Of a DNA stretch of 64,000 bases, positions 13,259-46,710 are shown in pieces. Position numbers and translations under genes: made by a program. The stretch is from an uncultured Chloroflexia bacterium (lineage in GTDB: Bacteria > Chloroflexota > Anaerolineae > Anaerolineales > E44-bin32). Position 1 is the first letter of the stretch; each line of letters begins with the position of its first letter. Where the stretch lies: assembly GCA_963777165.1 (NCBI GenBank), contig CAVZPO010000027.1, positions 22,209 through 86,208 of the forward strand, given 5' to 3'. Under the pieces are notes generated by a model. That model was not told the DNA's origin and did no database searches. It saw only the letters and a list, made by a program, of their open reading frames with translations.

Positions 13259-13276
13259 TGTGGAATCATACCCAGA

Positions 13277-29550: not shown

Positions 29551-29877
29551 AGCTCAGTCTCCCCAGACCTCCTTGGGTCCTTTCGGGCCCGATCCTGAAG
29601 CCAACAGGCATCATGCCGGTGAGTCTTCATGGTCATCGTGCGGATTGTCGACCGGTTACCGGGGGATATTGGACTGAGTGTCTCCTTTGCCTCTCCGCTC
29701 CCTGGCAGAGGTGTGTGCGTCGAATTGGCCGTCGAGGCGATCCTGGGTGTTCTGCAGCCATCGGCGAACCTCGGGTTCCCAGCTATGCCCCACTCGGCCC
29801 GGAGCCGGCCGTCCCGGCCCCCGCTCCATGTACCTTGCAGCTGAGGTGCTGTTCCCATCCTAAGCGAGGAGAAGATC

Positions 29878-30315: not shown

Positions 30316-30502
30316 TGGATCGTTCGCTGCGGGTGATTGCGTGTCCCGGCTCCATGAGCGTTGGGTCCGGGCTGGGGGCGAAGCGACGCACAGCCTGGGC
30401 CCGTCGCCGGGGTGCATGCACCCCGGCGGCCTCCTCGACAACAGGGTGGATTAGTTCGCACCTGTCCTCCGGTGACTCCCGGGGCGTCTCGGTTGCGCTG
30501 CC

Positions 30503-30578
30503 AAGGCCTCCCCCAAGTGGCGGAGGAAAACACTCCCCGGCCGATGGATGTGGCCGGGGAGCCGCTACGGTAGGATGA
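30503..30578 (+). repeat. Intergenic box-plus-hairpin repeat, copy E (intact)
   Basis: CTCCCCCAAGTGGCGGAG (30508-30525), then hairpin CTCCCCGGCC-GATGGATGT-GGCCGGGGAG (30533-30561), then TAGGAT (30571-30576). Confidence 0.85.
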
Positions 30579-30690
30579 ATTCGTGCCCTGGATGGGCATA
30601 TCGGCTTGTCCGATCCGCGTCTTGGGTGCGGTGGGCGGCACGAAGGCCGCCATCACCGCCTCAAGCCAATCGATCAAGAGGAGGCATCTC

Positions 30691-30849
30691 ATGTTGTGGA
30701 CGATCATTGTGATTCTCGCCATCCTGTGGCTTCTCGGCTTTCTTGGCCCGAACTACATCCCCAGCATCCCTAGAATGGGCAACGCAGTCCACGTCCTGAT
30801 CGTGATCGTGGTCATCCTGGTTATCTTGAATCTCCTGCACGTTATCTAG
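30691..30849 (+). CDS. Small membrane protein (lmo0937-like family)
   Basis: ORF 30583..30849. Met at 30691 follows AGAGGAGG. Sequence: MLWTIIVILAILWLLGFLGPNYIPSIPRMGNAVHVLIVIVVILVILNLL. Confidence 0.7.
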   Translation: MLWTIIVILAILWLLGFLGPNYIPSIPRMGNAVHVLIVIVVILVILNLLHVI

Positions 30850-31171
30850 CCGGGAACACGTCAGCAGTCCGCCACGGGGCAATCTTCTGCGCCTGACCGT
30901 AGCTGCGGCTTCAACGCAGGATGCGATCGACTGGCCGACAACGGCCCGCTTCCAAGTCGAAGCGCATGTTGAGAACCCGGACCTGGCCTTGGGAGTTCCG
31001 CGCGAGCAACGCGTCGGGTAGGTGATACGTTGCGTTCCATCGGCAAGGTATCCACCCCCGTTGCTCCGCCAACGGGGGTCTTGCTTTCCCTTTGCGAGAT
31101 CCTCATGATGAGAGAGGGGATACGGCATCCTCCACCCGCTCAACCGGGTAGCTGCTGCCGACCGAATCGCC

Positions 31172-32665
31172 ATGGATTCTAACAGCCACAACCACCGCGC
31201 GATCCTGGAACGCATCGCCCATCGAGCCATGCTTGAGCGAGGGCTGCTCCCGGATTTCTCTGCCGCGGCGCTTGCCGAGCTGGGACAACTCCAGCCGTCG
31301 ACGGCGGGGAAGTCCCGGCCGGCCGATGTTTCGCCTGGGATCCGCGACCTGCGCAGCCTGCTGTGGGCTTCGATTGACAACGACGACTCGCGTGACCTCG
31401 ATCAGCTGACCTTTGCCGAGGCATTGCCCGGCGGCCAGGCGCGGCTTCTCGTCGCCGTGGCGGACGTAGCCTCGCTGGTGCCCGATGGCTCAGCCATCGA
31501 CGCCCACGCCCGCCACAATACCACCTCGGTCTACACCGCCGGCGGGATCTTTCCCATGCTCCCGGAGAGGCTCTCTACCGACCTCACCTCGCTCAATCCT
31601 GGCGAGGACCGTCTCGCACTTGTTGTGGAGATGGTGATCGATTCCGGTGGAGCGCTTCACGACTCCACCATCTACCGGGCGCGGGTCAGGAACCATGCCC
31701 AGCTCGCCTACAACAGCGTGGCGGCCTGGTTGGAGGGAAGCGGCGGCCCGCCGGAGGTTCTTGCGGGTCTGAAAGGATTGGACGAGGTCCTGCGCCTGCA
31801 GGATCGGACCGCCCAGAGCATGAAGCGTCTCCGGCATGTCCATGGGGCGCTCAGTCTGGACACCCTTGAAGCCAAGCCCGTGTTCGACGGTGATCAGCTC
31901 CGGGCGCTGGACGTCGATGAGAAGAATCGGGCCAGAGAGATCATCGAGGATTTCATGATCGCAGCCAACGGCGTGACCGCCCGGTATCTCTCGGCCAAGG
32001 GATTCTCCTCGATTCGGCGTGTCGTACGCACGCCCAAACGCTGGGACCGGATCGTCGCCCTGGCCTTCGAACGCAAAGCCTCCCTCCCGGACCGCCCGGA
32101 TTCGAAGGCGCTGGAGGAGTTCCTGATCAAGGAGAAGGCCGCCGACCCTCTGCGATTCCCGGACCTGTCCCTGGCCGTGATCAAGCTTCTGGGTTCAGGC
32201 GAATACGTGGCCGAGCTGCCTGGAGGGAATGCCCCGGGACACTTCGGCCTTGCCGTCAAGGATTACACCCACTCGACGGCCCCCAATCGCCGCTACCCCG
32301 ATCTGCTTACCCAGCGCCTGGTGAGGGCGGCGCTGGCCGGTCAGCCTGCCCCCTATCGGAAGGACGAGTTGGACGGCCTGGCCGCACACTGCACGGAAGC
32401 CGAAGATGAGGTCACCAAGGTCGAACGTCAGGTTGGCAAGTCGGCGGCCGCGCTTCTGCTCCAGTCGAGGATTGGCGAGCGCTTTGATTCGATCGTCTCC
32501 GGCGCCTCCGAGAAGGGCACGTGGGTCCGCCTGCTCACGGTTCCGGTGGAGGGCAAGCTGACTCAGGGGTTTGAAGGGGCCGACGTCGGCGACCGGCTTC
32601 AAGTGCAGCTAATCTCTGTGGACGTTCAGCGAGGGTTCATAGATCTCAAGAAGGTCCATCCATGA
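31172..32665 (+). CDS. RNB-domain exoribonuclease (RNase II/R family)
   Basis: ORF 31172..32665, intact, 497 aa: ...IDNDDSRDLDQL...ARHNTTSVYTAGGIFPMLPERLSTDLTSLNPG...HFGLAVKDYTHSTAPNRRYPDL. C-terminal S1-like domain. Confidence 0.85.
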   Translation: MDSNSHNHRAILERIAHRAMLERGLLPDFSAAALAELGQLQPSTAGKSRPADVSPGIRDLRSLLWASIDNDDSRDLDQLTFAEALPGGQARLLVAVADVASLVPDGSAIDAHARHNTTSVYTAGGIFPMLPERLSTDLTSLNPGEDRLALVVEMVIDSGGALHDSTIYRARVRNHAQLAYNSVAAWLEGSGGPPEVLAGLKGLDEVLRLQDRTAQSMKRLRHVHGALSLDTLEAKPVFDGDQLRALDVDEKNRAREIIEDFMIAANGVTARYLSAKGFSSIRRVVRTPKRWDRIVALAFERKASLPDRPDSKALEEFLIKEKAADPLRFPDLSLAVIKLLGSGEYVAELPGGNAPGHFGLAVKDYTHSTAPNRRYPDLLTQRLVRAALAGQPAPYRKDELDGLAAHCTEAEDEVTKVERQVGKSAAALLLQSRIGERFDSIVSGASEKGTWVRLLTVPVEGKLTQGFEGADVGDRLQVQLISVDVQRGFIDLKKVHP

Positions 32666-32723
32666 GATCGCTAGGGCTGGGATACCGGCTCCCGCTCCTC
32701 GAATTGGGCCAAGGAGAACTTCC

Positions 32724-33110
32724 ATGAAAATGCAAGCGGGTTTGTGGATCGATCATCGCAAGGCCGTGATTGTGATCGTTACGGACGAAGGGGAAACGCT
32801 CAGCGAAATCCCCTCGAACATGGAGAAGCACGTCCGGTTCTCAGGTGGTACGGGGTCTGAGGTCGGTTCAGCGGAAGACATGCGGGACCGACAGTTTGGG
32901 AACCACCTCAACAGCTACTACGACAGGGTCGTCGCCGCTCTGCGTGGCGCGGACTCCATCCAGATCTTCGGTCCAGGCGAGGCCAAAGGTGAGCTCAGCA
33001 AGCGTCTTGAGCACGAAGGACTCAAGGGTCATGTCCTCGCGGTTGAAACCGTGGACAAAATGACCGACCGCCAGATCGCAGCCAAGGTCCGAGAGCATCT
33101 ACGGACTTAG
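32724..33110 (+). CDS. Conserved hypothetical protein (128 aa)
   Basis: ORF 32724..33110 with an AAGGAGA RBS. Coding-like composition. I cannot assign a family with confidence. Confidence 0.55.
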   Translation: MKMQAGLWIDHRKAVIVIVTDEGETLSEIPSNMEKHVRFSGGTGSEVGSAEDMRDRQFGNHLNSYYDRVVAALRGADSIQIFGPGEAKGELSKRLEHEGLKGHVLAVETVDKMTDRQIAAKVREHLRT

Positions 33111-33178
33111 CGTGAGCCAGACAGGTCAAGACCAGGCCATCCGACAGAAGCAGATCGATATGGACTCGCGAGGTTGGC

Positions 33179-33667
33179 ATGAGTGACGGACAACGGATCA
33201 CAGCTGAGGAGGCTCGTGCGATTGGCGTGCGGCTCGGGGTCGATTGGGCAAACATCGTCCTGGAGCAGTTTCGGCGCGGGCTCGAGGTAGAACTCGAACA
33301 CGGCGCCCGCGATCCGGACACCAACGTCACGAACGACGATCTGACCCTCACGGGCAAGATCGCCTGGGCGCACCTCAAGGAGATCCGGGACTACTACACG
33401 CGCCTGGATCGTCTCGAGGCCGAGGCCCGGGCCGAGACGATCGGCATCTGGCCGCTGCATGACGGGAGGCCCGATCTTGAGGCCGCGGCCGTGTCCAGCG
33501 GGGCTGATCCAGGCAGCCTTGCCCTTGTCTTCTCCGGGGCGCATGGGGGGCTCTTTCCCAGGCTGCACTACGGTTCGGGGGATCAGGACGAGGAGACCCG
33601 CCGTGGCCGTTCGCTCACGCGAGACCTCTCAAGCGGAGATCTGTTTTCCCTGATGAATGAGGGCTAG
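33179..33667 (+). CDS. Hypothetical protein; the N-terminal region resembles the DUF5661-type helical domain
   Basis: ORF 33179..33667: ...EQFRRGLEVELEHGARDPDTNVTNDDLTLTGKIAWAHLKEIRDYYTRLDRLE. Confidence 0.5.
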   Translation: MSDGQRITAEEARAIGVRLGVDWANIVLEQFRRGLEVELEHGARDPDTNVTNDDLTLTGKIAWAHLKEIRDYYTRLDRLEAEARAETIGIWPLHDGRPDLEAAAVSSGADPGSLALVFSGAHGGLFPRLHYGSGDQDEETRRGRSLTRDLSSGDLFSLMNEG

Positions 33668-33825
33668 CCCGCCACCACCGACTGGGCGCGCACATGCAGC
33701 GTGGAAACCCGTTGCCGCAGGTCGGCCAGGTTGGCCTTAGCCGCCGTTCAATCGATACCCTGGCTTGCCCAGTCGCAGCCGGATGGCGGCCCTCCGTGAC
33801 ACGCCTTGAAGCGCCAGCTTCACAC

Positions 33826-34644
33826 CTAGGATCCGCCTGCGCCTGCAGGCGAGCGCAGCTCCGCGAGCGGATCCCCTCCCCTCCAGCCCTTCAGGCCGTG
33901 CAGGAAGAGGCCGAATTGCGACAGGCCGAACCACAATAGAAAGACGGTCAGGCCGATGCACGTCCAGTCCACCCACCCGGGAAGGCCGCTTTCAATCTCC
34001 GCCAGCCTAGCCCGCCATCCGCCGATCCTGGACTCATACATCGAGACGACGCCCAGGAGCTCCTCGACATGCCGCTGGGTCTCTCCCACGTCCCCTCGGA
34101 GAACGTATTCGACATCCGACAGGAAGGTGGATGCCTGATCGGCGACCTGCTCGATGCTGGCGATGTCGCCGTTCAATCGGTCGGCAGCGTCGATCAGGCC
34201 GGCGAGGAGTTCCTCGCCGGGGATCTCCAGGTTGAGGAACGAGGCGGAGTTGATCGTCTCCAGCGTGGTCAGCAGCCCCTGCAAAGCGACCCGCACCTGG
34301 TCGATTTTCTCGCTGGCTGTCCTGAGCCCTGGAATCAGCGTCTCGTCCAGGGTCTCCCCGAAGGCGTGTAGGGTGTCAGACGCCTGCGTCGTCTTCTGCG
34401 TCAAGGCGGCCAGCGCAATCTCGACATCTTCTAAGATGCGGACCGCCCGCTGCAGTTCCAGTTCGGCGCTCTGCAGCGTCGTCTGCGCCTGGCTCAACTC
34501 CAGGTCGACCTCGTCCAGGCGGGCCAGGCCCAGGCGTGTGAGCGGCCCGTTGTAGGCCCAGGCAGCACCGATCCCGACAAGACTCAGCACCATCAGGATG
34601 ACGCTCAGCCCGATCAGCAAACCGTAGAGGATCTTCCGCGCCAC
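33826..34644 (-). CDS. Membrane-anchored coiled-coil protein, unknown function
   Basis: ORF 33826..34704(-). GTG start at 34644 follows AAGGAGG. N-terminal TM (ILYGLLIGLSVILMVLSLVGIGAAWAY), a long helical repeat region, and a C-terminal TM. Confidence 0.6.
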   Translation of the reverse strand: MARKILYGLLIGLSVILMVLSLVGIGAAWAYNGPLTRLGLARLDEVDLELSQAQTTLQSAELELQRAVRILEDVEIALAALTQKTTQASDTLHAFGETLDETLIPGLRTASEKIDQVRVALQGLLTTLETINSASFLNLEIPGEELLAGLIDAADRLNGDIASIEQVADQASTFLSDVEYVLRGDVGETQRHVEELLGVVSMYESRIGGWRARLAEIESGLPGWVDWTCIGLTVFLLWFGLSQFGLFLHGLKGWRGGDPLAELRSPAGAGGS

Positions 34645-35077
34645 GTCTGCCTCCTTGCCGGAGAACCGGGTCTGTGGGTGCTCTTCCGAAAGAGCATCGA
34701 GCAACCCGTCTTACCCCGGCGCCCCACGGTCGCCGGCGGGCACCGTAGATCGGCGGCCCCTCCGGCGAGTCTACCTTCCCGGCTTAGCACCCCTCCGCAT
34801 CCCATCCCTGGCCTCGGGAAGATCACCTCGGCGACGGCACCGCATAAGGTCGGGTCACCAAGACCCGCATTCCGAGGTGGTTCAAACACCCGTACCCTGA
34901 TGGCCTGCCGCTCGGCATGTCCACAGTCGGACGACCGGACGGTGGATTGAGGCTCTGCCCGCCCGAATTGTCAAGATGTGGGGGGCCGCACGCCTTGTCC
35001 AAGCAGGAGTTCACCCGCCATCTCCCGGTATCCTTCTTGCCAGAGGCTATCTCAGCCCCCTGGCCCGGGCTTGGCCC

Positions 35078-35129
35078 TTGACAAGCAAGGCGGAATTGTC
35101 CTATCATCATATTGTAGTAACTTTATGAC
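35078..35129 (+). promoter_or_regulatory. Candidate promoter of the GntR/BMC operon: TTGACA (35078-35083), 18-nt spacer, TATCAT (35102-35107), then a GT/AC-rich candidate GntR operator TTGTAGTAACTTTATGAC (35112-35129)
   Basis: Read directly. It lies about 45 nt upstream of the GntR start. Confidence 0.45.
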
Positions 35130-35153
35130 TTTTCCGAGCTAGGTGAGCGTTGG

Positions 35154-36011
35154 ATGTCTAGTGGGCGTATGCCACCTCCCGACCGGCGTCTGCGGGTTGA
35201 TCGTGCCAGCCCGCTCCCGCTGCACGTCCAGGTAACACAGGCTCTCCGAGACCAGATCGTGCGCGGCGCCTGGAAGCCCGGCGACCGAGTCCCGGGAGAC
35301 CTGGAATTGTGCTCCGAGCTCGGGATCAGCCGGACCACCATCCGTCAAGCCTTGGCGGAGATGGCGCACGAGGGGTGGGTGGTGCGCGAACGGGGTCGCG
35401 GGACTTTCGTTGCGCCCCCGAAGCTGACCGAGACCGCCGTCGAAAGATTGTCGGGCTTCTTCGAAGACATGGTCGCCCTTGGCTACCCGCCAATCAGCCA
35501 GGTGCTGCATCAGGAAGACCGCCCGGCCGACGAGCAGATCGCTGCCCGGCTGAACGTCAGGCCCGGGACGCGCATCGTCGAGATCGAGCGGCTGCGTTTC
35601 GTGGAGGACGAGCCGGTGGTGTTGACTACGACCTACCTGCCCCTGGCGTTGGCGCCGGGACTGGCAACGGCCGACCTCACCCGCCGATCGTTGTACGAGT
35701 ATCTGGAAACCGAGTGCGGCCTGACGCTGGCGCGCGGACAGCGCACCATCGAGGCCGTCGCTGCCGATGTCCGCCAGGCCAGGCTGCTTCGCATCCGCAA
35801 GGGCGCTCCGCTGGTATACCTGCAAAGCGTGAGCTATCTGGCGGACGGGCGGCCGATTGAGTACTACCGGGCGCTCCACCGCGGCGACCGCTCGCGCTTC
35901 GAGGTCGAGCTGGTTCGAGGCCGAGATCGCGGGGCGGCCGGATCGGACGGGGACCGCTTCGGGCGGCTGCCTCCGGGCGGCGGGACCGTCCGGCGCAGGG
36001 ACGTAACGTGA
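35154..36011 (+). CDS. GntR/HutC-family transcriptional regulator (wHTH plus UTRA)
   Basis: ORF 35154..36011: PLHVQVTQALRDQIVRGAWKPGDRVPGDLELCSELGISRTTIRQALAEMAHEGWVVRERGRGTFV. A UTRA-like C-terminal domain follows. Confidence 0.9.
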   Translation: MSSGRMPPPDRRLRVDRASPLPLHVQVTQALRDQIVRGAWKPGDRVPGDLELCSELGISRTTIRQALAEMAHEGWVVRERGRGTFVAPPKLTETAVERLSGFFEDMVALGYPPISQVLHQEDRPADEQIAARLNVRPGTRIVEIERLRFVEDEPVVLTTTYLPLALAPGLATADLTRRSLYEYLETECGLTLARGQRTIEAVAADVRQARLLRIRKGAPLVYLQSVSYLADGRPIEYYRALHRGDRSRFEVELVRGRDRGAAGSDGDRFGRLPPGGGTVRRRDVT

Positions 36012-36042
36012 CGAGTCGGAGTTCGGCGGCCAGGAGGGGTTC

Positions 36043-36783
36043 GTGACGAACAGGGAAGTGATCCGGGCCAAGGTCCGCCAGGCGGTGTATCGCACGCTCG
36101 GCCTGGAGCCGCACCTCGATCCCGCGCCCAGGCGCCGCCTCGTGACCGAGCACGACCTGCGCGGCCTGCCTTTCGGATCGGACTTCCAGGTTCCGGAAGC
36201 CGGCCTGATCACGCCCCTGGCCCGCCAGGTTGCCATGGATCGCCACATCACACTGCACAAGACATCCGCGCCGGCAACGACTACAAAGAAGCAAACGCCG
36301 CGCACACCCAATGTGGCCGCCGGAGGCAAGGCCGTCGCCATCGGCGCCGACCATGGGGGCTTCCAACTCAAGGAGACGCTCAAGGCCTACTTGCACGAGC
36401 TCGGGCATGAGGTCATCGACTGTGGGACGAACAGCACCGAGGCGGTCGACTATCCGGATTTCGCCCTGGCGGTGGCCGAACTGGTGTCGCAGGGGCGGGC
36501 CTGGCGCGGCATCTTGGTCGACGGCGCCGGCATCGGTTCGTGCATGGTTGCCAACAAAGTGCCGGACGTCAGGGCGGCCATGTGCTACGACCAGTCCACT
36601 GCCGTGAACAGCCGCGAGCACAACGACGCTAACGTGCTGACGCTGGGTGCGGGCCTGATCGGCGAGACGCTTGCCCGTCAGATCGTCAAGACCTGGCTCG
36701 AGACGCCGTTCGGCGGCGGCCGGCACGCGCGCCGCGTCGAGAAGATCATGGAGACCGAACGGCGCTTCCTGCGCAGGCCCTAG
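36043..36783 (+). CDS. rpiB: Ribose-5-phosphate isomerase B (RpiB/LacAB family) with an N-terminal extension of about 100 aa
   Basis: ORF 36043..36783. Core: [15 protein letters not shown]...[28 protein letters not shown]...[12 protein letters not shown]. Extension: amphipathic helix [16 protein letters not shown], then [10 protein letters not shown]...[17 protein letters not shown]. Confidence 0.85.
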
Positions 36784-36823
36784 GCAGCGGCGACGAAGGA
36801 CTCTGGAATTCCTAACGGGACGA

Positions 36824-37690
36824 ATGATGAAGCCGATTGACGAGAAGACACTGGATCGCATCATCGAGCAGATCACCAGCCAGGTGCTGCTCAGCCTGCA
36901 GGAGGAGCCGGCTGCGAAGGGCTCGCCTGCCCCCGCCCCTCTCTCGGCGCACGATTTCGTGCAGCACGCTCGTCCGGTGCTGAGCGCCGGCGCCGATCGT
37001 CTGGCCAGCACGCTGGGGATCGCGCCGACCGACAAGAGCCTGGCGCACACCATCGACCACACGCTGCTCAAGCCCGACGCCACGCAGGACCAGATCGCCC
37101 AGTTGTGTTTCGAGGCCCGCAAGTACGGCTTCGCCTCGGTGTGTGTCAACTCCTCCCACGTCAAGCTGTGCGCCGATCTGCTCAAAGGCAGCGGTGTCCC
37201 GGTGTGCACGGTCATCGGGTTCCCGCTGGGCGCCACGCCGACCGATGTCAAGGTCTTCGAGGCCCAACAGGCCATTCGCGACGGCGCCAGCGAACTGGAT
37301 ATGGTGATCAACGTCGGCGCGCTCAAGTCGCGGGAGTACGAGTTGGTGCGAGGCGACATCGCCGCCGTGGCCCGCGCCTGCCACGCCGGGAATGCCATTC
37401 TGAAGGTCATCATCGAGGCCGCCTTCCTGACGGATGAGGAGAAAGTGATCGCCTGCCAGCTGGCCAAGGTGGCCGATGCCGACTTCGTCAAGACCTCGAC
37501 CGGCTTCGGCCCCAGCGGGGCGACGCCGGAAGATGTCGCCCTGATGCGGCGCGTCGTCGGTCCGTCCATGGGGGTGAAGGCAGCCGGCGGCATCCGTACC
37601 TACGCCGATGCTCAGAAGATGATCGCCGCCGGCGCCAGCCGGATCGGCGCCAGTGCCAGCGTCAAGATCATTCAGGGACCTGAGAAGTAG
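36824..37690 (+). CDS. deoC: Deoxyribose-phosphate aldolase (DERA) with an N-terminal extension of about 60 aa
   Basis: ORF 36671..37690, Met at 36824. Core: [11 protein letters not shown]...[10 protein letters not shown]...VIGFPLGAT...[12 protein letters not shown]...[10 protein letters not shown]...FVKTSTGF. Extension: [21 protein letters not shown] plus a Pro/Ala linker. Confidence 0.9.
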
Positions 37691-37709
37691 CCGGCAAGGA
37701 GAAGCGCCC

Positions 37710-38348
37710 ATGGCCGTGGATCTAAGGACCTACATCTTTCTCGACAGCCTGCAGCTCCAGCACTCGGGCTTCCTGGGGACCGTTGCCCGGGGGTTCTTGC
37801 CCCTGCCCAACGACACCTCGCTGTGGGTCGAGATCTCGCCCGGGATCGAGATCAACCGCATCACCGACATCGCCCTGAAGTCGACCCGTGTCCGTCCCGG
37901 GATGCAGATCGTCGAGCGGTTGTTCGGGATGCTTGAAGTTCATCATGAGGACCAGGCCGAGGTGCGGGCCGCCGGGGCGGCCATCCTGCGGGCGCTCGAT
38001 CTTCAGGAATCGGATCGCATCAAGCCCAGGGTGGTGTCGAGCCAGATCATTCGCCACATCGACGCCCATCAGGTTCAGCTGATCAACCGCATGCGGCATG
38101 GCCACATGCTGTTGGCCGGCCAGACCCTGTACGTGTTGGAGGTCGAGCCAGCCGGGTACGCCGCCCTGGCCGCCAACGAGGCGGAGAAGGCCGCGGACAT
38201 CAACATCCTTGAGGTGATGGCCTTTGGCAGCTTTGGCCGTGTGTACCTTGGGGGTGAGGAACGCGACATCATGGCCGCCTACGGCGCGGCCGTGGGCGCC
38301 ATTGAAGGGGTGTCCGGGCGCGTGGTCGAAGGTGGCCGGCGCGACTAG
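37710..38348 (+). CDS. BMC shell protein, tandem-domain (BMC-T), divergent
   Basis: ORF 37653..38348. Met at 37710 follows AAGGAGAA. 212 aa with two BMC-like halves (...[22 protein letters not shown]... and ...[42 protein letters not shown]...). Confidence 0.75.
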
Positions 38349-38409
38349 GTCGAGGAAACCGTCGAGCGTAGACGTTCGAACTCATCCAACGAGTCATCAG
38401 GAGGCAACT

Positions 38410-38730
38410 GTGTCTGAAGAATACGGAGCAACCGAAGCGCTGGGAATGATCGAGACCAAGAGCTACGCGGCCATGGTCGAGGCGGCCGACGCGATGGTCA
38501 AGGCGGCCAAGGTCGAGCTCGTCGCCTACGAGAAGACCGGCGGCGGGTTTGTCACGGCCATCGTGCGCGGCGACGTCGCCGCGGTCAAGGCGGCCGTGGA
38601 AGCCGGTGCGCGCGGGGCGGAGAAGGTCGGCGAGGTCGTCGCCATTCACGTCATCCCGCGCCCGCATGTCAATGTGGATCGCACGCTGCCTCTGGGCCGC
38701 GGCCCTGCCGCCGGCAAGGGCGGCAAGTAA
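38410..38730 (+). CDS. BMC shell protein, hexamer type (BMC-H, PduA/EutM-like)
   Basis: ORF 38224..38730. GTG start at 38410 follows AGGAGG. Sequence: [58 protein letters not shown]. Confidence 0.9.
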
Positions 38731-38838
38731 CCGGACCCTGTGGCGGTTGTCCCAGGCGGTCCCCGGCCCGTTCCGGGGGCCGCCCGGGCGGACGCACGCC
38801 GCCTCGCCGAGAGGTATGGGCGTCGAATGGAGTAGCCA

Positions 38839-39138
38839 ATGCTGCTGGGCAGAGTAGTGGGCACGCTCGTCGCCACGCGCAAGGAGCCGTCGCTCGAGGG
38901 GCTGAAGTTCCTCGTGCTGCGTCAGCTGGACATCGACGGCAAGGAGATGTCCGGCTACCGGGTGGCGGCCGACGCGGTGGGGGCGGGCCTGGGTGAAGTG
39001 GTCCTGTACGCCACGGGCAGCTCGGCGCGCATGACCACCGTCACCGACAAGCGTCCGTGCGATGGCGTGATCATGGCCATCGTCGACACGCTTGAGGTGG
39101 ACGGCGTGGTGACCTACGACAAGGCCAGGGTCGGGTGA
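38839..39138 (+). CDS. BMC vertex protein (BMC-P, EutN/CcmL family), copy 1
   Basis: ORF 38839..39138: [31 protein letters not shown]...[10 protein letters not shown]. Confidence 0.9.
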
Positions 39139-40640
39139 TGGGCGACCGGCGCGACCGTGGGGCGCAGGAGCATGCCGTGCTCGATGACGCCCGGATTGAC
39201 GCGATCATCGAAAGGGTCATGGCCGAACTGCGCCAGGCGGAGAGCGGCCCGCATGAGCCGCTGCCGCCCGCCAGTCCAGCCTTGCCGTCCGCGCCGGCTC
39301 CCGATCTGCGCCATGCGGACAACCTGTTCCCGGATGTCGACAGCGCCGTGCAGGCCGCCCGGCGGGCCTTTGAGCAGCTGGGCGGGCTGCCCCTGGCGTT
39401 GCGCGAGCGCATGATCGGGGGAATGCGGCGGACGGCACGCGAGAACGCCCAGGTCCTGGCGCGTCTGGCCTGGGAAGAGACCGGCATGGGGCGGCTCGAG
39501 GACAAGATCGAGAAGAACCTGCTCAACGCCAACAAGGCGCCCGGTACGGAAGTCCTCACCCCGACAGTCTGGACCGGGGACGACGGGATGGCGCTCGTGG
39601 AGTACGCCCCGTACGGCGTCATCGGCTCGATCACCCCGAGCACCAACCCGACCTCGAGCGTGATCTGCAACGCCATCAGCATGGTCGCCGCCGGCAACTC
39701 GGCGGTGTTCAACGCGCACCCGGGGGCCAAAGGCTGCACGAACCTGACGGTGCAGCTGCTCAATCAGGCGATCGTCGAAGCCGGCGGGCCGGCCAACCTG
39801 GTGTGCGCCATTGCCGAGCCGACGATCGAATTGGCGCAGGAGCTCATGCACCACCCGACGGTGAACCTGCTGACGGTGACCGGTGGGGAGGGCGTGGTGC
39901 ACGCCGCCATGCAGAGCGGCAAGCGCGCCATCTGCGCCGGCCCGGGCAACCCGCCGGTCGTGGTGGATGAAACGGCCGATATCGACGAGGCCGGGCGCGG
40001 GATCGTGCGCGGCGCCTCATTCGACAACAACATCGTGTGCATCGTCGAGAAGGAGACCTTTGCCGTGGCGACGGTCGCCGAGGCCCTCAAGCGCTCGATG
40101 CTCGCTCACGGCGCCTACGAGATCGATGCCGGCCAGCTCGAGCGGCTGATGAAGGTCATCTTCACCCAGGTGCCGCCGCCGGGGAAGGTCGGGCCGCTGA
40201 ACAAGTCCTTCATCGGCAAGAGCGCCGCCGTGCTGCTCAAGGAGATCGGCATCACCGTCGGCGACGAGATCCGTCTGATCGTGGCCGAGGTCGCCGCCGA
40301 TCACCCGCTGGTCGTGACCGAGCAGATGATGCCGATCATGCCGCTGGTGCGCGTGCGCCATGCCGACGAAGGCATCGACCTGGCCAAAAAGGTGGAGCAC
40401 GGCTACCGGCACACGGCGGTGATGTACTCCAAGAACCTCGATCATCTCAGCCGCATGGCGCGGGTCATGGACTGCAGCATCTTCGTCAAGAATGCCCCGT
40501 CGCTGGCAGGTCTGGGCGCCGGCGGGGAGGGGTTCTGTTCCTTCACCATCGCCAGCCCCACCGGCGAGGGCATCACCAATCCGATCAGTTTCAGCCGCCT
40601 CCGGCGCTGTACGCTCAAGGATGCGTTCCGAATCGTATGA
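39135..40640 (+). CDS. CoA-acylating aldehyde dehydrogenase (PduP/EutE-like) with an N-terminal encapsulation-peptide-like helix
   Basis: ORF 39135..40640, intact, 501 aa. N-terminus [18 protein letters not shown] plus a Pro-rich linker. Core ...[26 protein letters not shown]...[13 protein letters not shown]. Confidence 0.9.
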
Positions 40641-40676
40641 GACCGATGCGCCCATTCTGCAGCAAGGCGATGACCG

Positions 40677-41267
40677 ATGATTGAGCCCGCACTCGCTCTG
40701 GTCGAGTTCTCCAGCATTGCCGCCGGGATACAAGCCGCCGATGCGATGGTCAAGCGCGCCCCGATCGACGTGATCAAGGCGGGGACCGTGCACAACGGCA
40801 AGTACCTGGTGCTGATCGGCGGCCTGACAGCGGATGTCGAGGAGTCGCTGGCCGCCGGCCGGCAGGTCGGCGCCGATGCAGTCCTGGATTTCGTCTTCCT
40901 GCCGCACGTGCATCCCGAGGTCGTCGAGACGATCGGCGGAGCGCGTGCGCCGCAGGCCAACGACGCGCTGGGCGTGATCGAGACGACGACGGCGGCCGGC
41001 GCCATTCACGCCGCCGATGCCGGCGTCAAGGCCGCCATGGTCCGCCTGGTCGAGGTGCGCCTGGCCGACGGCCTGGGCGGGAAGGGTATCGTCCTGTTCT
41101 CCGGGCTGGTCGCCGACGTCGAAGCCGCCATTCAGGGCGGCGTGGGCGTCCTCGAACGGCCGGACCTGCTCGTGCGCCAGGTCGTCATCCCGCAGCTGCA
41201 CCCCGGCATGTGGGAGAACGTCGGCGACGCCACACGCTTCGGCCACCGCGTGCTGGGCCACCTATGA
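40677..41267 (+). CDS. BMC shell protein, tandem-domain (BMC-T, PduT-like arrangement)
   Basis: ORF 40677..41267. Two BMC domains: ALALVEFSSIAAGIQAADAMVKRAPIDVI... and ALGVIETTTAAGAIHAADAGVKAAMVRLV... Confidence 0.85.
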   Translation: MIEPALALVEFSSIAAGIQAADAMVKRAPIDVIKAGTVHNGKYLVLIGGLTADVEESLAAGRQVGADAVLDFVFLPHVHPEVVETIGGARAPQANDALGVIETTTAAGAIHAADAGVKAAMVRLVEVRLADGLGGKGIVLFSGLVADVEAAIQGGVGVLERPDLLVRQVVIPQLHPGMWENVGDATRFGHRVLGHL

Positions 41268-41596
41268 AATTCGCCCGCGTGCAAGGCACCGTCGTGGCCA
41301 CCCGCAAGTACGAGGGGCTCGAGGGCGTCAAGTTCCTGGTCGTCCAGCCGCTGGACGAGGATCTGCGACCCGTCGGCGGTCCGCAGATCGCAGCCGACGC
41401 CACGGCCCAGGCCGGGCCGGGGGAGCTGGTCCTCGTCGTCGGCAGCCGCGAAGCGGCGCAGGCCCTGCCCGTGGTGTTCGTCCCGGTCGATCTGGCCATC
41501 ACCGGCATCATCGACGAGGTGGAGGTCGAGCGCGGGCTGCGCCGCACACAGCCGACGGCCGTCTGGCACAGTCCGCCGTCCGAGGACGAGGACTGA
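41264..41596 (+). CDS. BMC vertex protein (BMC-P), copy 2
   Basis: ORF 41210..41596, Met at 41264 (ATGA overlap): MKFARVQGTVVATRKYEGLEGVKFLVVQPLDED...LVLVVGSREA. Confidence 0.9.
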   Translation: MKFARVQGTVVATRKYEGLEGVKFLVVQPLDEDLRPVGGPQIAADATAQAGPGELVLVVGSREAAQALPVVFVPVDLAITGIIDEVEVERGLRRTQPTAVWHSPPSEDED

Positions 41597-41598
41597 CG

Positions 41599-41871
41599 AT
41601 GTACATCGGCAAAGTGATCGGGACGGTTGTTTCGACGATCAAGATCTCGCACCTCGATGGCCGCAAGCTGCTGCTCGTGGATCAGCTCGATCTGCAGGGG
41701 AATGAGACCGGGGCGTACGATATCGCCGTGGACGTCGTCCAGGCCGGGCCGGGCGATACGGTGCTGGTGATCGACGAAGGCAACGGCGCGCGCCAGATCC
41801 TTCAGCTCGACCCGGGGGCGATCCGGGCGGTGATCGTGGGCGTGGTCGACGAGGTGGCGCTGGGGATGTAG
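41599..41871 (+). CDS. BMC vertex protein (BMC-P), copy 3
   Basis: In-frame tail of ORF 41017..41871 from Met at 41599: MYIGKVIGTVVSTIKISHLDGRKLLLVDQLD...[11 protein letters not shown]. Confidence 0.9.
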   Translation: MYIGKVIGTVVSTIKISHLDGRKLLLVDQLDLQGNETGAYDIAVDVVQAGPGDTVLVIDEGNGARQILQLDPGAIRAVIVGVVDEVALGM

Positions 41872-42001
41872 CAGCTAGCGACTAGCGGCTGTCAGCTATC
41901 AGCGGTCAGCAAACAGCCAAAGGGCAAGCGGCAAGTCGCAGGTGGCCTGGAGCTCGCGAGGCGCGAGGTAGGGCCAGGCAAGGAACGGGAGGGGAATCGG
42001 C

Positions 42002-42022
42002 GGGGCCAGCTGAGCTGGCCCC
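42002..42022. terminator. Bidirectional hairpin GGGGCCAGC-TGA-GCTGGCCCC between convergent BMC-P3 and the tpiA fragment
   Basis: Read directly. Perfect 9-bp GC stem. No clear U tract. Confidence 0.45.
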
Positions 42023-42052
42023 GATGGCTTCCGTCGGATCCCCGACTTCGGG

Positions 42053-42151
42053 CTAGCGACTGCCGGACGCCTCGACCGCACGCCTCACCAGGTCGACAAA
42101 GTCGGGCTTGAGGCTCGCTCCCCCCACCAGCGCCCCGTCGATCTCCGGCAT
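42053..42151 (-). pseudogene. tpiA 3' fragment (last ~32 codons only)
   Basis: Own translation: MPEIDGALVGGASLKPDFVDLVRRAVEASGSR*. Homology to the full tpiA at 49068 stops abruptly at 42151. Confidence 0.85.
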
Positions 42152-42284
42152 GGCCCTTTCCCCCAGGCGGTGGGCGATCCGATTCTGCTGAGAAGCTTCC
42201 GTCTTGGGCCGTGATCTGCGGGGCGCGAGGAGGAGGATGGCGCCTCGCTCCGGGAGCGTATCCGCGCGGCATAGCGCGGGCGGG

Positions 42285-43358
42285 TCAGCAGGGATCGCGT
42301 GTGCCGGCGGTGTTTCCCTTTGATCTGCTGTTTCTCAGGTCATAGAAGGTGGCCACGAGCGCATCTAGTTCAAGTCTCGCCGATGCCTCGTAGCGGAGGT
42401 CGATGTGGATTTCGCCAGGCAAATGGATCGAGAGGACCACGTCCCCTTGACCGGCGCCGGCAATCGACAGATGGTCAATCCTCCTCAGAGGCATGTAGGT
42501 CCCACACCCCGCCGTATCTTTCGCGCCCGCCCGGGGAGGGTACCTCCCGGATGGTGATGATCTCGCGGTTTGTGAGGATGATCGCATTCGTCGGGGACAC
42601 CATCCGTCGGTATGTCCGGCCGAATGCGGCTCCGATCTTGACCTGAGATCTCCGGCTGAAGAATCGCCTGCTGGATCTCTTCGTCTCCTGACCAGGCTTC
42701 GCTTTGCATAGTTCATGAACTTGAAGTTGCGTTTCCCCCAGGCATCGAAGGGGTCTTGCCCTCCGGTTCGGGGAACTTTCGACACTTCCGCGACCCGACC
42801 GAATTCTCGTCACAATGGGAGAGAAGAGATACTCGGTCACCGCGTTGAAGCGGACTGGGGTGCGAGCAGGTGCGAGCCCGTCTCCTTCCAGGCCCATGAT
42901 CTCGAGCCGGGCGTCCAGAAGCCTGGAGCTGACTTCGACGCAACTGATCATGGAGATCGAGATAACTGCGCACGTCGATCTTGTGGCCGCGCTTCTCGAG
43001 AATCAGAATCTCGTCGGACGTCGCCCAGACCATCTTCTCGATCTCCCGGTGGAGGAAACCCTCGTAGGAAGGCGCGATAACGACAAGCGGGAATGGCACC
43101 CCCTTCGCTTGCAGAGGTCGGAAGAAGCTGCTATACGCGGCAGGCACGTCGGCATAGGAGGCGATCGACCTCGCCCAAGATCGCTGCGCCTGCTCGAATG
43201 GGGTCAGGCCGACGGGTACTGGACCGCGCTAGGGCGCGTCTGTGATTCCAGATCGATCGCAGGCCTGCGAGGATCCTCGAGGCGCAATGCACAATCCTCC
43301 GCGGAGGGCGAACTCCGCAGACCGTGGCGTCGTGCAGGCACGAAGCGCAGAGCGCCAC
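42285..43358 (-). pseudogene. Hypothetical protein (Cys-rich N-terminus plus PH-like repeats) broken by at least 5 frameshifts
   Basis: Pieces in ORFs 42285..42785, 42475..42951 and 42713..43147 and in the frame of 43131..43760: VALCASCLHDATVCG...; FFRPLQAKGVPFPLVVIAPSYEGFLHREIEKMVWATSDEILILEKRGHKIDV...; VSPTNAIILTNREIITIREV...; RIDHLSIAGAGQGDVVLSIHLPGEIHIDLRYEASARLELDALVATFYDL. Confidence 0.5.
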
Positions 43359-43468
43359 AGGCCTTCGGCCTGCGGGTCTGGCTGGAGGAGTGTTGACTAT
43401 CGGGCAGCCAGTTCCGCCCAGTGGCGCTGACGCCCCCTCGCGAGCGAGGGCCTTGTCCAGCTGTTGGT

Positions 43469-44116
43469 CTACCTCTGGCCGTACTTGCTCTGGTAACGGT
43501 GGTGCAGGGCCGCCACGGCTTCTGCCGGGATCTCGTCGGGGTGACCCAGCTGCAGCGCCAGCCACGAGGTCCGGGCCACATCCTCGACCATCACGGCGGC
43601 CTTGACGGCGTCTTCCGCGGTCGGGCCGAGGGTGAACACGCCGTGGTTCTTGAGCAGGACAGCGCAGGAGGGGCCGATCGAACTCCACGACGACCCGGCC
43701 GATCTCTTCGCCGACCGATGGGCGCGAACCCCCCGCAGGGGATCGGTCCGCCGAACTCATCGGCGTGAGCCGTCAGATAGACCGGGATCGACCGGGCATT
43801 GGCGGCGAAGGCCGTGGCATAGGGGGAATGCGTATGAACAATTCCACCGACGTCCGGACGGTGCCGGTAGATGTAGAGGTGGCTGGCCGTATCCGAGGAG
43901 GGCAGCAAGTCCGAGTCCCGAACTTGTCCCTCGAGATCGACGATCACCATGAGCTCGGGACGAAGGTCCTCATAGCGAACTCCGGACGGTTTGATCACCA
44001 CCAGCCCCGTGGCCGCATCTCGGGCGCTGACGTTGCCGCTCGTCCAGGCGACGAGCCCGTTCCTGGGCAGCTCCTGGTGCAGGCGGAACAGGCTGTCGGC
44101 GCAGGGCTTCAAGCAT
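43469..44116 (-). pseudogene. araD: L-ribulose-5-phosphate 4-epimerase (class II aldolase fold), with at least 3 frameshifts
   Basis: ATG at 44116 (MLEALR). Middle part in ORF 43591..44328: LFRLHQELPRNGLVAWTSGNVSARD...VIKPSGVRYEDL...SSDTASHLYIY...GGIVHTHSPYATAFA. C-terminus in a third frame (own translation ...AEDAVKAAVMVEDVARTSWLALQLGHPDEIPAEAVAALHHRYQSKYGQR*). Confidence 0.75.
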
Positions 44117-45805
44117 GGACGACCTCCGCTCCGGCTGCGCACCTCGGCTCTCCAGCGCTTCAGCCGTTTGAGGACATCATTCTCGCCGCGCCCGAAGTAA
44201 TCGTGCAGTCGCAGATAGTCGCTGTAGATCTCAGTGTAGGCTGCGTGGTGCTGCGGGTCCGGCAAGAAAGCCTCGTCGTTCAACCGAGCCATACGGCTCG
44301 GCCGCGGCGTAGATCGTGTCATATCCACCCAAACGTGCGCCGGCGGCCACGGCGCCGAACATCGCTGATCCCAGGGCAGGCGTCTGTTTCGAAGAGCTGA
44401 CTTGGATAGGCAAGCCGGTGACGTCGGAGAAGATCTGCATCAGCAGCCTGTTCTTCTCCGGCAATCCACCGCAGGCCACGAGCTCATGGATCGGGACGCC
44501 GTTCTGCTGAAACGTCTCAACGATCACTCGTGTGCCGAATGCCGTGGCCTCGATCAAGGCCCGGTAGATCTCCTCGGGCCTGGTGGCGAGGGTCGCGCCG
44601 AGCAGCAGGCCCGCCAGATCCACATCGACCAATACCGAGCGATTGCCGTTCCACCAATCGAGGGCCAGCAGCCCACTTCCCCCGGCGCGAGGGCGGCGGC
44701 CTTCCGTTCGAGCAGGGTGTGGATGTCGATCCCTTCTTCGGCTGCTTCGCGCTCGAGGCAGCGCCGGAACGCAGTTCTCCACGAACCAAGCGAAATGGTC
44801 GCCCACGCATGATTGCCCCGCCTCGTAGCCAAAGAATCCGGGGATGATCCCATCTTCCACGCACCCGCACATGCCCGGCACAAGGTGCTCTTCCTTGCCG
44901 CAGCACCATGTGACAGATGGAGGTGCCCATGATCATGACCATGCGCCCGGCGCTCCGTGACGGTCGTGGCCGGCACGGCGACGTGGGCGTCGACGTTGGC
45001 GATCGCCACCGCCGTGCCAGGCATCAGGCCCGTCCAAGCGGCGGCCTGCTGTGTGAGACCGCCGGCTTTCTCGCCCACAGGCCGAATGTCACGCGACATC
45101 TTCGCTTCTACGACGGTGCCGAACTCGGGGTTCAGGGCGCCGAAGTACGCCGGCGGAGGAAAGCCTTCGCGCTTGGACCACAGCGCCTTGTAGCCGGCCG
45201 TACACGAGTTGCGGGTCTCGGCGCCCGTCAGCTGCCAGACGACCCAGTCTGCCGCCTCGATCAGCCGATCTGCGGCGGCGTAGACCGCGGGCGCTTCGTT
45301 CAAGATCTGCAGGGACTTGGAAAAGAACCACTCCGAGGAGATCTTCCCACCGTAGCGATTGAGCCAGGCTTGCCCCGTCTCCCGGGCCACGCGGTTGATC
45401 TCGTCCGCCTCGGGCTGTGCGGCGTGGTGCTTCCAGAGCTTCACCCAGGCGTGCGGCTCGCCACGCCACTCGGGCAGCGTGCAGAGCGGTGTCCCATCGG
45501 ACGCGAACGGGAAGCATGGTGCAGGCAGTGAAGTCGATCCCCACGCCGATGACGTCGCTGGGGAGACACACCGGCGTCCTGGAGCACCTGCGGGATGGTG
45601 GCCCGAAGCGTGCGAAGGTAGTCCTCCGGGTCCTGCAACGCCCAGTCAGGCGCAAGCGGGAGACCCGTTTCCGGCAAGCGTCTCGTCGATGACCCCGTTC
45701 GAGTAGGGGTACACCGCAGTCGCCACCTCGTGGCCGGTGCCGACATCGACCAAGACGAGCCCTACCGGACTCTGTCCCGAAATCCACACCGATGGCGTAC
45801 TTCAT
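44110..45805 (-). pseudogene. araB: Ribulokinase (FGGY family), with at least 5 frameshifts
   Basis: N-terminus MKYAIGVDFGTESGRA (start at 45805, ORF 45089..45823). Internal pieces in ORFs 44554..45444 (KLWKHHAAQPEADEINRVARETGQAWLNRYGGKISSEWFFSK...) and 44231..44881 (...[48 protein letters not shown]). C-terminus ...[27 protein letters not shown] in ORF 43591..44328. Confidence 0.75.
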
Positions 45806-45847
45806 CCGAGTGCACCTCCACAACCAACTCGAGCGGCAAGCGCCGCG

Positions 45848-46710
45848 CTAACCGGTGGCTCCGCTTCCTGGGTGATGATAGATATCCCAGTCCATGTACT
45901 TTCCAAGACCCTCTTGCAGGATCGAGGCACAGCGCGACGGGTTGATGGCTACATGATGTTCGAAGCCTTGCTCGCAGATGTGCGTCAGCAGATCTCTGCA
46001 AGCTGGTCGATGTGAACGACGCCGTAGCCGCCAAAGGTCCGCAAGGGATCGTTCGTCAGCTGGCCTTCGCCGAAGTAGGCCCGGATGCTGTCCGCGGAGT
46101 GTCATCGGGGGAAACGCGGCAGTAGGTGAAGGGTGTTTCCCGAACGCGACCGACGATGGTCCCATACGTGTTCTCTTTGCCGACCGTGCCGGCGATGATG
46201 GCCTGATAATCCATGGTCGGGATGTCCTCGGGGGCGATCCCTTCCTGGACGAAGATGTCCTTGGGGAGATTGGAGCAGTGGAAGATGACGGCTTTGTCCG
46301 GATCGTCTCCGTAGTTGTTGTTCCAATCCACGATCGCACTGGGCTTCCCCGTCGCCAGGACCATGGCGTACATGCCCACAAGTCCGGCGACGTCCGTCTC
46401 ACACGCGGAGGGCATGAGGTTGTTGCTCATCATGCTCATCAGGGTGCACGGCACGACGCCGTAGAACTCCTCCATCGCCGTCCAGCATTGCAGGGCGGTC
46501 GCCACCACCTCCGTCTCCTGCATCCAGCCCTCGATGGCAACCCCAAGTTTCGCCATTCTGCGTCAGGATCAAGGGTGGCACGCGGCCGGTCGAGACATAA
46601 GCCATAATCTCATCGATCTTGTGTTTGACCGAAGGCTCGCTGTCGCCGAGCTTCAGCGCCCGGCCGAAGATCTCAGAGAGATCGACCGTCTCGACCGAGA
46701 TGCCGGTTGA
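45848..46710 (-). pseudogene. FucI-family sugar isomerase (araA position), 5'-truncated and frameshifted; paralogue of 2509..3927
   Basis: ORFs 46056..46556 (AKLGVAIEGWMQETEVVATALQCWTAMEEFYGVVPCTLMSMMSNNLMPSACETDVAGLVGMYAM...VDWNNNYGDD) and 45848..46402 (...ICEQGFEHHVAINPSRCASILQEGLGKYMDWDIYHH). The first ~260 codons are absent. Confidence 0.7.

Follow-up and report, generated by a model that had tools for sequence, protein, structure and literature searches.

A ten-gene microcompartment operon in an uncultured Chloroflexia bacterium

A stretch of 64,000 nucleotides from contig CAVZPO010000027.1 of an uncultured Chloroflexia bacterium (positions 22,209 to 86,208 of the forward strand; this whole stretch is referred to as the window) was analysed and found to carry a bacterial microcompartment (BMC) locus of the sugar-phosphate-utilisation (SPU) type. 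Ten co-oriented genes without any frame break are encoded on the + strand between positions 35154 and 41871, in the order GntR/UTRA regulator, extended RpiB, extended deoxyribose-5-phosphate aldolase (DERA), BMC-Tdp, BMC-H, BMC-P, acylating aldehyde dehydrogenase (AldDH), BMC-Ts, BMC-P and BMC-P. The genes are separated by at most ~110 bp and overlap by 4 bp at two junctions; the base composition of the window is GC-rich (58–69%). A first-pass annotation, made from the letters alone, had described ten co-oriented unbroken genes, and this is confirmed by the list of open reading frames (ORFs) of the window. The ten proteins were compared with Pfam, NCBIfam and PDB, and all ten were matched.

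The signature enzyme of the locus is DERA (36824-37690, + strand), which reached 281 bits with the NCBIfam deoC equivalog (cut-off 117), 3e-16 with Pfam DeoC and values down to 9e-80 with the DERAs in PDB. A direct alignment placed Asp159, Lys223 and Lys252 on Asp102, Lys167 (the Schiff-base lysine) and Lys201 of E. coli DeoC, and the lysine that the first-pass annotation had singled out for checking is thus in place. Compared with the DERAs in PDB and with E. coli DeoC, the protein has ~72 extra residues at its N-terminus, and a helix in this extension is kept in relatives. The AldDH (39135/39138-40640, + strand) matched Pfam Aldedh (4e-35) and NCBIfam PRK15398 (645 bits, cut-off 403), and its best matches were the two solved BMC-associated acylating aldehyde dehydrogenases, PDB 5jfl (2e-128) and 4c3s (6e-127). 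Its catalytic Cys301 lies in the motif of BMC-type acylating enzymes and aligns with the cysteine of 5jfl. Ahead of the catalytic domain, whose start is at residues ~52-63 in the PDB alignments, are an N-terminal helix (residues ~15-33) and a Pro-rich linker, both kept in every related locus examined; the C-terminus is level with that of 5jfl and has no extension. The N-terminal extensions of AldDH, DERA and RpiB gave no match in Pfam and PDB sequence searches.

The shell gene set comprises one BMC-H, two BMC-T (one Tdp and one Ts) and three BMC-P. Together with the BMC-type acylating AldDH these genes lie within 4.2 kb, which places the locus among the BMC operons and makes the seven genes a compact operon for heterologous work. 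When the six shell ORFs were compared with PF00936 and PF03319, five passed. The sixth, BMC-Tdp (37710-38348, + strand), stayed below the Pfam cut-off for PF00936 (16.3 versus 24.5 bits), yet it is a genuine shell protein. The Pfam check put forward in the first-pass annotation would have counted this ORF wrongly as failing. Its best PDB match was CcmP (7e-90, 303 bits), followed by the BMC-T protein of HO (~1e-75), CsoS1D (7e-58, 199 bits) and RMM (163 bits), and the NCBIfam CcmP equivalog was passed with 357 bits (cut-off 340). Therefore, it is a permuted, double-stacking tandem-domain protein of the CcmP-like type, and the gating pair of such pores, Glu69-Arg70, is kept. For the protein of locus L081, which is identical to it, PF27545 (CsoS1D_N) is recorded.

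BMC-H (38410-38730, + strand; start taken from the 106-residue gene call in L081) matched PF00936 with 7e-29 and has the interface motifs KAAK and PRPH. BMC-Ts (40677-41267, + strand) contains two PF00936 domains (4e-34) and is PduT-like, with a match to eut_PduT under the cut-off and not a single cysteine in the protein. The three BMC-P pentamer proteins are encoded on the + strand at 38839-39138 (PF03319, EutN_CcmL, 4e-27), 41264-41596 (1e-24) and 41599-41871 (5e-20; 90-residue gene call in L081); their pairwise identity is 40–44%, and the second and third genes adjoin. A shell "heavy in vertex proteins" had been remarked upon as an oddity, but three BMC-P are a catalogued defining feature of the SPU subtypes that carry BMC-Tdp.

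The product of 37710-38348 passes the equivalog for the beta-carboxysome protein CcmP though no carboxysome is encoded, and automated pipelines will probably give the gene a wrong name in such SPU loci.

Assignment to the SPU class and most probably to subtype SPU3

Catalogues by Axen 2014 and Sutter 2021 cover the SPU loci, with more than 280 loci in 26 phyla and seven subtypes (PMC8217296). The first-pass annotation had called the class defined only by comparative genomics and uncharacterised biochemically. This is out of date, since Dwyer, Sutter & Kerfeld 2024 purified DERA and the RpiB-type ribose-5-phosphate isomerase (RPI) of the SPU6 operon from the Chloroflexi bacterium GWB2_54_36 metagenome-assembled genome (MAG), found the DERA active with kinetics measured on deoxyribose-5-phosphate, and showed a DERA-RPI complex (PMC11585597), and since a bioRxiv preprint of 2025 described self-assembly of the shell and cargo recruitment dependent on encapsulation peptides (EPs) for SPU-type loci of Hodarchaeales (PMC12747264). 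Isolation of a native SPU organelle was not reported in the literature found.

The class of the present locus follows from a DERA with its catalytic residues and an N-terminal extension, an adjoining RpiB-type protein with a Cys-to-Asp change (see below) and three BMC-P. Domain content, catalytic residues, catalogue descriptions and synteny all bear out the first-pass annotation of a complete SPU-type BMC locus. Its preference for SPU over PDU, EUT, GRM and PVM holds as well: neither among the ten genes nor among the window ORFs scanned was there a diol dehydratase, an ethanolamine ammonia-lyase, a glycyl-radical enzyme or a fuculose/rhamnulose-phosphate aldolase. An inserted, frameshifted segment (described below) does encode an araD-like class II aldolase at 43.6-44.3 kb, but one without an EP. 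A beta-carboxysome was also rejected. The BMC-Tdp is ~68% identical to CcmP and is the only match to a carboxysome family, whereas RuBisCO and CcmM were not found in the window and CcmN, a CcmK/L set and carbonic anhydrase are missing from the locus.

Subtypes were assigned by the written catalogue descriptions and by synteny, not by clustering with the catalogue hidden Markov models (HMMs), and the clade of the Tdp was judged without a tree. According to the catalogue (Sutter 2021, PMC8217296, Supplementary Data 2), SPU3 occurs in many phyla including Chloroflexi; its AldDH and DERA bear N-terminal EPs, its shell has one BMC-H, a BMC-P triplet, a CcmP-like Tdp and a Ts with neither a pore cysteine nor PduS, and its RPI stands before DERA and is sometimes fused to it. 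The present locus shares AldDH, pfam02502 and pfam01791, the RPI before DERA, the N-terminal EP-like extensions on AldDH and DERA, a single BMC-H with standard motifs, the BMC-P triplet, the CcmP-like Tdp and the Ts without pore cysteine or PduS partner. It differs in that RPI and DERA are separate genes here, and in that the Chloroflexi-type subgroup to which it belongs has an RPI helix with a EutQ-like module and conserves both a 5' GntR/UTRA regulator and a convergent tpiA. SPU2, by comparison, is described with four BMC-P (the extra copy from the green clade), one or two BMC-H and a PduS-associated Ts (PMC8217296), whereas three BMC-P and one BMC-H are present here, with RPI and DERA at the 5' end.

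Synteny was taken from a scan with AldDH over one genome per GTDB species, which gave 287 related stretches, 80 of which were kept as loci. More than 30 of the 80, from at least seven phyla (Chloroflexota, Acidobacteriota, Planctomycetota, Marinimicrobia, Verrucomicrobiota, Proteobacteria and Actinomycetota), have the order RPI-DERA-Tdp-H-P-AldDH-Ts-P-P seen in the window, and several loci with this order carry the RPI-DERA fusion typical of SPU3. A second order, H-Tdp-H-P-P-Ts-AldDH-P-P-RPI-DERA, which corresponds to the description of SPU2, was found in seven loci and was confined to Bacteroidales, Spirochaetes and KSB3-type genomes. The closest relative, L001, comes from an "uncultured Chloroflexia" MAG and is 95% identical in DNA over window positions 30506-46708 and 98% in AldDH.

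Because of the N-terminal AldDH extension, the CcmP-like Tdp, the Ts devoid of cysteine, the absence of PduS and the synteny, we assign the locus as an SPU-class catabolic BMC (metabolosome) operon with SPU3 as the best fit, with a probability of roughly 85%. A different assignment is suggested by the host, a Chloroflexota MAG lineage to which L001 also points: the locus might be SPU6, the Chloroflexi-specific subtype characterised by Dwyer 2024. The SPU6 model operon of GWB2_54_36 (PMC11585597) likewise has a GntR/UTRA regulator followed by RPI and DERA, an AldDH, one BMC-H, a Tdp and three BMC-P, lacks PduS and phosphotransacylase (PTAC), and shares the DERA catalytic triad, the Cys-to-Asp change in RPI and the N-terminal extensions on DERA and RPI. 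SPU6, which is catalogued from Chloroflexi only, has however a C-terminal EP on an AldDH of the EUT3/GRM branch, a blue-clade Tdp next to EUT3, a separate EutQ-like protein of ~130 residues and no Ts (PMC8217296). Here the AldDH is extended at its N-terminus, the Tdp scores above the cut-off of the CcmP equivalog, a Ts is present, none of the ten genes is a separate EutQ-like ORF of ~130 residues, with a EutQ-like module being fused to RPI instead, and the gene order is that of loci from many non-Chloroflexi phyla. We consider SPU6 very unlikely.

Several points nevertheless weigh against the SPU3 assignment and the catabolic role that goes with it. The subtype rests on written descriptions, and the colour clades of BMC-P lie outside the comparison. 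A PduS homologue is present in most loci of every subtype except SPU6 (Dwyer 2024, PMC11585597) and there is none in the window, and in host phylum and GntR/UTRA regulator the locus is similar to the SPU6 model. Neither deoA, deoB or deoD nor a deoxyribokinase was seen among the window ORFs scanned, and the locus accounts for no route of CoA and NAD+ recycling.

The SPU-type loci of Hodarchaeales (L071, L072 and L075) have DERA, AldDH, RPI, BMC-H, Ts and P genes in common with the present locus, but in another order; their DERA carries a fused flavoprotein domain, they encode PTAC and citrate synthase, and no Tdp was detected in the archaeal loci fetched.

The locus is one more intact member of a class with hundreds of members, and its main value is that of a correct annotation: it should be labelled SPU and not "carboxysome CcmP", and its RpiB a pseudo-isomerase.

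The RpiB-type protein is probably not a ribose-5-phosphate isomerase

The second gene of the operon (36043-36783, + strand, GTG start) encodes an RpiB-family protein of 246 residues, in which LacAB_rpiB (PF02502, 1e-55) covers residues 98-235 and is preceded by an N-terminal extension of 96 residues. At the position of the catalytic cysteine (in ICGTG of PDB 3he8; Cys66 in E. coli) the protein has Asp160, which is invariant across 42 homologues, whereas His193 (His99 in E. coli) is kept. Since the catalytic cysteine is replaced, the sequence argues that RpiB is probably no ribose-5-phosphate isomerase. The same Cys-to-Asp change is found in all SPU RPIs (Dwyer 2024, PMC11585597). RpiB is most likely a structural partner of DERA.

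Alternatively, RpiB could be a working isomerase for a different sugar phosphate, in which case the compartment would run an extra isomerisation step and RpiB would not be a mere scaffold. The fold and His193 are indeed conserved, the protein scores above the threshold of the NCBIfam rpiB equivalog (158 versus 139 bits), its RpiB domain is 61–93% identical across more than 100 clusters, pointing to strong purifying selection, and the RpiB of M. tuberculosis is functional with Glu in place of Cys (noted in PMC11585597). On the other hand, the equivalent SPU6 protein with the identical Asp substitution had negligible ribose-5-phosphate isomerase activity (PMC11585597), the locus has no enzyme that would connect a pentose phosphate with DERA, and the extension bears two targeting-type elements. 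We regard a working isomerase as unlikely and retain a structural role of RpiB as partner of DERA.

The window encodes a second, unextended RpiB (16978-17481), which keeps the catalytic cysteine and provides an internal contrast to the SPU RpiB. Next to it, at ~16199-16990, lies a second triosephosphate isomerase (TIM) gene, a contrast in the same way to the tpiA neighbour of the operon; a frameshift at its AYEP motif moves the rest of the gene into a different frame. Both are found in a stretch of lower GC content (58–59%) beside an aldo-keto reductase and a DJ-1/PfpI protein.

An EutQ-like module in the RpiB extension

The two elements of the RpiB extension are an amphipathic, EP-like N-terminal helix (residues 4-18; 36052-36096, + strand) and a mini-domain of ~42 residues (residues 31-73; 36133-36261, + strand) that is homologous to the N-termini of EutQ and EutT. 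The helix, predicted by AlphaFold2 with a predicted local distance difference test (pLDDT) value of ~63, is conserved in relatives as (I/V)Rx(K/M)VRxxVYRTLG, and residues 31-73 are strongly conserved in this lineage, with Thr57-Pro58-Leu59-Ala60 and Asp66-Arg67 invariant. In a model of the whole protein, computed with the alignment of 42 sequences, the helix is followed by a compact beta-alpha-beta-beta-alpha-beta unit (residues 33-73, pLDDT 76-87), a disordered linker (residues 75-94) and the RpiB fold; the module modelled alone gave the same succession of elements with a mean pLDDT of 90.3.

A profile was built from 26 modules. In hhalign, the alignment of the modules matched residues 1-62 of E. 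coli EutQ with a probability of 93.5 (P 2e-7; the match covers EutQ 2-46) and residues 1-62 of E. coli EutT with a probability of 93.8 (P 2e-7). In a search with the module HMM against 17,863 ORFs, comprising all fetched loci and 20 kb of the E. coli eut region (284 ORFs), EutQ (E 1e-4) and EutT (E 4e-3) were the sole E. coli matches, and the single match in the window was inside RpiB. The HMM also matched the C-terminus of a protein of ~245 residues and of unknown family that is encoded in the three Hodarchaeota SPU-type loci (E 0.003-0.008; L071, L072 and L075 at about 6415-9650). When 1.84 billion representative proteins were searched exhaustively with phmmer, the module turned up in few contexts, namely at the N-termini of RpiB proteins and on class II aldolases. 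RpiB homologues of ~405 residues (for instance P0002) carry two modules in tandem and the others one copy, and among metagenome representatives of the aldolases the EP-like helix and module are N-terminal in P0006 and inserted mid-sequence in P0014. Three matches of the exhaustive search (P0005, P0009 and P0028) were unrelated repetitive proteins and were discarded. A comparison of the module profile with PDB that pointed to the peripheral-subunit-binding domain of E2 acyltransferase was non-significant (E 0.68) and was not used as evidence, and the module model had no Foldseek match in PDB with E <1.

Binding of Salmonella EutQ to the shell proteins EutM and EutL is mediated by its residues 9-41 (helices H1/H2), and EutQ 1-99 suffices for targeting (Sci Adv 2025, PMC12487888). 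The part of EutQ that aligns with the RpiB module, residues 2-46, spans H1/H2, and both proteins combine a module element, a flexible linker and a cargo-binding part. Unlike EutQ, RpiB lacks the cargo-binding helices H3/H4 and the cupin acetate-kinase domain, and its module is joined with an amphipathic helix and with a disabled RpiB domain. For the RPI extension, Dwyer 2024 described an EP helix and a "less conserved, unstructured linker" (PMC11585597). In the literature searched we found no paper that treats both EutQ and ribose 5-phosphate isomerase in the context of microcompartments.

Since the module is homologous to the shell-binding N-terminus of EutQ, we tentatively suggest that in the Chloroflexi-type SPU3 lineage the catalytically disabled RpiB could serve as a shell-cargo adaptor, composed of an EP-like helix, a EutQ-like module, a linker and a DERA-binding domain. 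If so, the module, which also occurs on class II aldolases and on the archaeal SPU-type protein, would therefore be a portable shell-anchoring domain common to EUT and SPU organelles, with shell binding proposed by analogy to EutQ. Anchoring by RpiB would then explain why SPU organelles keep an inactive isomerase, a question posed by Dwyer 2024, carry the EutQ "linker" principle over from EUT to a second and much more widespread class of metabolosomes, and provide a small targeting domain, confidently folded in AlphaFold2, for engineering. The proposed tether by a EutQ-like module is possibly a new detail; the rest of the locus is of a catalogued type.

Proposed function and the question of cofactor recycling

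According to the proposed function, deoxyribose-5-phosphate from the breakdown of DNA or nucleosides would enter a shell composed of one BMC-H, the PduT-like BMC-Ts, the gated CcmP-like BMC-Tdp and three pentamers. Encapsulated DERA would cleave it into glyceraldehyde-3-phosphate plus acetaldehyde, and encapsulated CoA-acylating AldDH would trap the acetaldehyde as acetyl-CoA with reduction of NAD+, whereas glyceraldehyde-3-phosphate would leave the shell and be processed in the cytosol. Targeting of the cargo would rely on amphipathic helices at the N-termini of AldDH, DERA and RpiB. This chemistry, which the first-pass annotation had already implied, fits the intact catalytic residues of both enzymes; encapsulation, substrate, transport route and regulation are what we infer from the gene content.

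Among the window ORFs scanned there was no match to PTAC (PF06130), iron-type alcohol dehydrogenase (ADH), acetate kinase or RnfC/PduS-type proteins, in line with the earlier observation that pduL, adh and ackA are not found in the window. Their absence had been taken for a peculiarity but is catalogued and normal for Tdp-containing SPU types. Since PTAC, ADH and PduS are not encoded in the locus, CoA/acetyl-CoA and NAD+/NADH would have to cross the shell, plausibly through the large gated pore of the Tdp, or be recycled by enzymes encoded elsewhere; for PTAC-less subtypes, Dwyer 2024 proposed that acetyl-CoA exits via the Tdp pore (PMC11585597).

It could also be argued that the shell encloses another aldehyde-generating pathway, for example that of ethanolamine by way of a satellite "EUT module", and that DERA and RpiB are only cytosolic neighbours. 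Such satellite loci do occur in some SPU3 and SPU6 genomes (Sutter 2021, PMC8217296), and the view is limited to 64 kb of this genome. The N-terminal extensions of DERA and RpiB are, however, specific to BMCs and missing from housekeeping homologues, both genes are embedded in the operon with spacings of 19-40 bp, and EutA, EutB and EutC were not seen among the window ORFs scanned, which makes this pathway most improbable compared with encapsulated deoxyribose-5-phosphate cleavage.

Positions 1-15930 of the window are dense in genes of sugar catabolism, with a fucose/arabinose-isomerase-like protein, a xylose-isomerase-like TIM barrel, an FGGY kinase, SorC and LacI regulators, a GFO/IDH/MocA oxidoreductase and a PfkB kinase. 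Of the enzymes that could provide deoxyribose-5-phosphate, neither a nucleoside phosphorylase nor a phosphopentomutase nor a deoxyribokinase was seen in this region.

Regulator and operon boundaries

The first gene of the operon (35154-36011, + strand) codes for a HutC/PhnF-like GntR-family regulator with a UTRA effector domain (Pfam GntR 1.5e-19, UTRA 4e-45), whose NCBIfam PhnF/HutC-like matches stayed under the cut-off. Homologues lie 5' of the locus in L001 and five further related loci, and the regulator probably senses a sugar phosphate. Upstream, at 35078-35107 (+ strand), there is a sigma-70-like promoter candidate (TTGACA-18-TATCAT, 11/12), a match to the consensus only and in itself no evidence of function. 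Between the operon and the former convergent gene tpiA, a GC-rich hairpin with the core GGGGCCAGC-TGA-GCTGGCCCC is found at 41989-42033 (-30.6 kcal/mol over a 50-nt stretch); because a T-run is absent it is not called a terminator. The start of the sigma-70-like site and the end of the hairpin correspond to the outer limits of 35078 and 42022 that the locus had been given before.

Displacement of tpiA by an inserted segment

In ten related loci of the Chloroflexi type, tpiA follows convergently and directly after the third BMC-P, which supports the earlier proposal that it was the neighbour before an insertion took place. In the window, this ancestral convergent neighbour (49068-49880, - strand; PF00121 7e-82) is displaced by ~6.6 kb, with a direct repeat at both flanks. 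Its product has at most ~11 extra residues before the start of the canonical fold and is thus without an EP. The left copy of the repeat (445 bp, 41711-42155) and the right copy (48723-49170), which runs into the intact tpiA, are 95% identical, and each consists of the 3' end of the third BMC-P gene, the intergenic region and the 3' end of tpiA. The segment between them (42156-48722, - strand) carries a broken cluster of a LacI regulator, a sugar-binding protein, araA-like, araB and araD-like genes and is absent from the ten related loci.

L001 shares the inserted segment up to 46708 as well as its left junction, where a tpiA 3' fragment is followed by the ara-like cluster; L001 also has transporter genes that are missing in the window after 46708. 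The ara genes are intact in L001, whereas many frameshifts are present in the window. Between 41925 and 46560, 30 of 33 indels relative to L001 are single-base insertions in the window outside homopolymers, and such +1 insertions, at about every 150 bp, break every gene of the inserted cluster. The indel rate relative to L001 is ~7/kb in the insert and <1/kb in the adjoining SPU operon, which rules out a generally poor sequence quality as the complete explanation of the frameshifts. The left repeat copy carries +1 insertions and the right copy none. The one-sided pattern looks technical rather than like natural gene decay, and the segment itself could be a Campbell-type integration or duplication or a join of strains in a mixed assembly. 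A 20-mer across the right junction was found in one metagenome contig, as a chance match of 22 nt; a 20-mer is too short for this collection.

Other observations in the window

An element of ~55 nt occurs in four copies on the + strand, at 19720-19775, 24227-24282, 29480-29535 and 30507-30562, where none would be expected by chance. It consists of two GC-rich hairpins, CCTCCCCCAAGTGGCGGAGG, then after ~5 nt CTCCCCGGCC-GATGGATGY-GGCCGGGGAG, and GTAGGAT or GTAGAAT follows within ~15 nt in three of the four copies (not at 24227). Each copy precedes a small gene on the + strand (HU-like, CsbD-like, a CBS pair and DUF5670). No Rfam family matched the element and covariation was absent; possibly it belongs to the promoters or 5'-UTRs of a small stress-type regulon. 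Two copies bound a window-specific stretch of ~950 bp with the CBS gene (29553-30505), which is absent from L001.

Frameshifts were also seen outside the insertion. At 7424-9038 a SorC-type "Sugar-bind" regulator is split near 8241-8305, and at 50892-52140 an FtsX/MacB permease is split near 51392. Conversely, the GntR gene (by a deletion in a G-run at window position 35392) and an RNase II gene are split in L001/L081 while the copies in the window are intact, and the assemblies of the window and of L001/L081 seem to carry scattered indel errors.

ARAGORN called a tRNA-Ser(cga) of 84 nt at 59893-59976 (- strand), which overlaps the start of a stop-to-stop reading frame with methyltransferase domains (59826-61421, + strand). 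Since the Rfam tRNA model is under the gathering score at this position, the call is probably a false positive.

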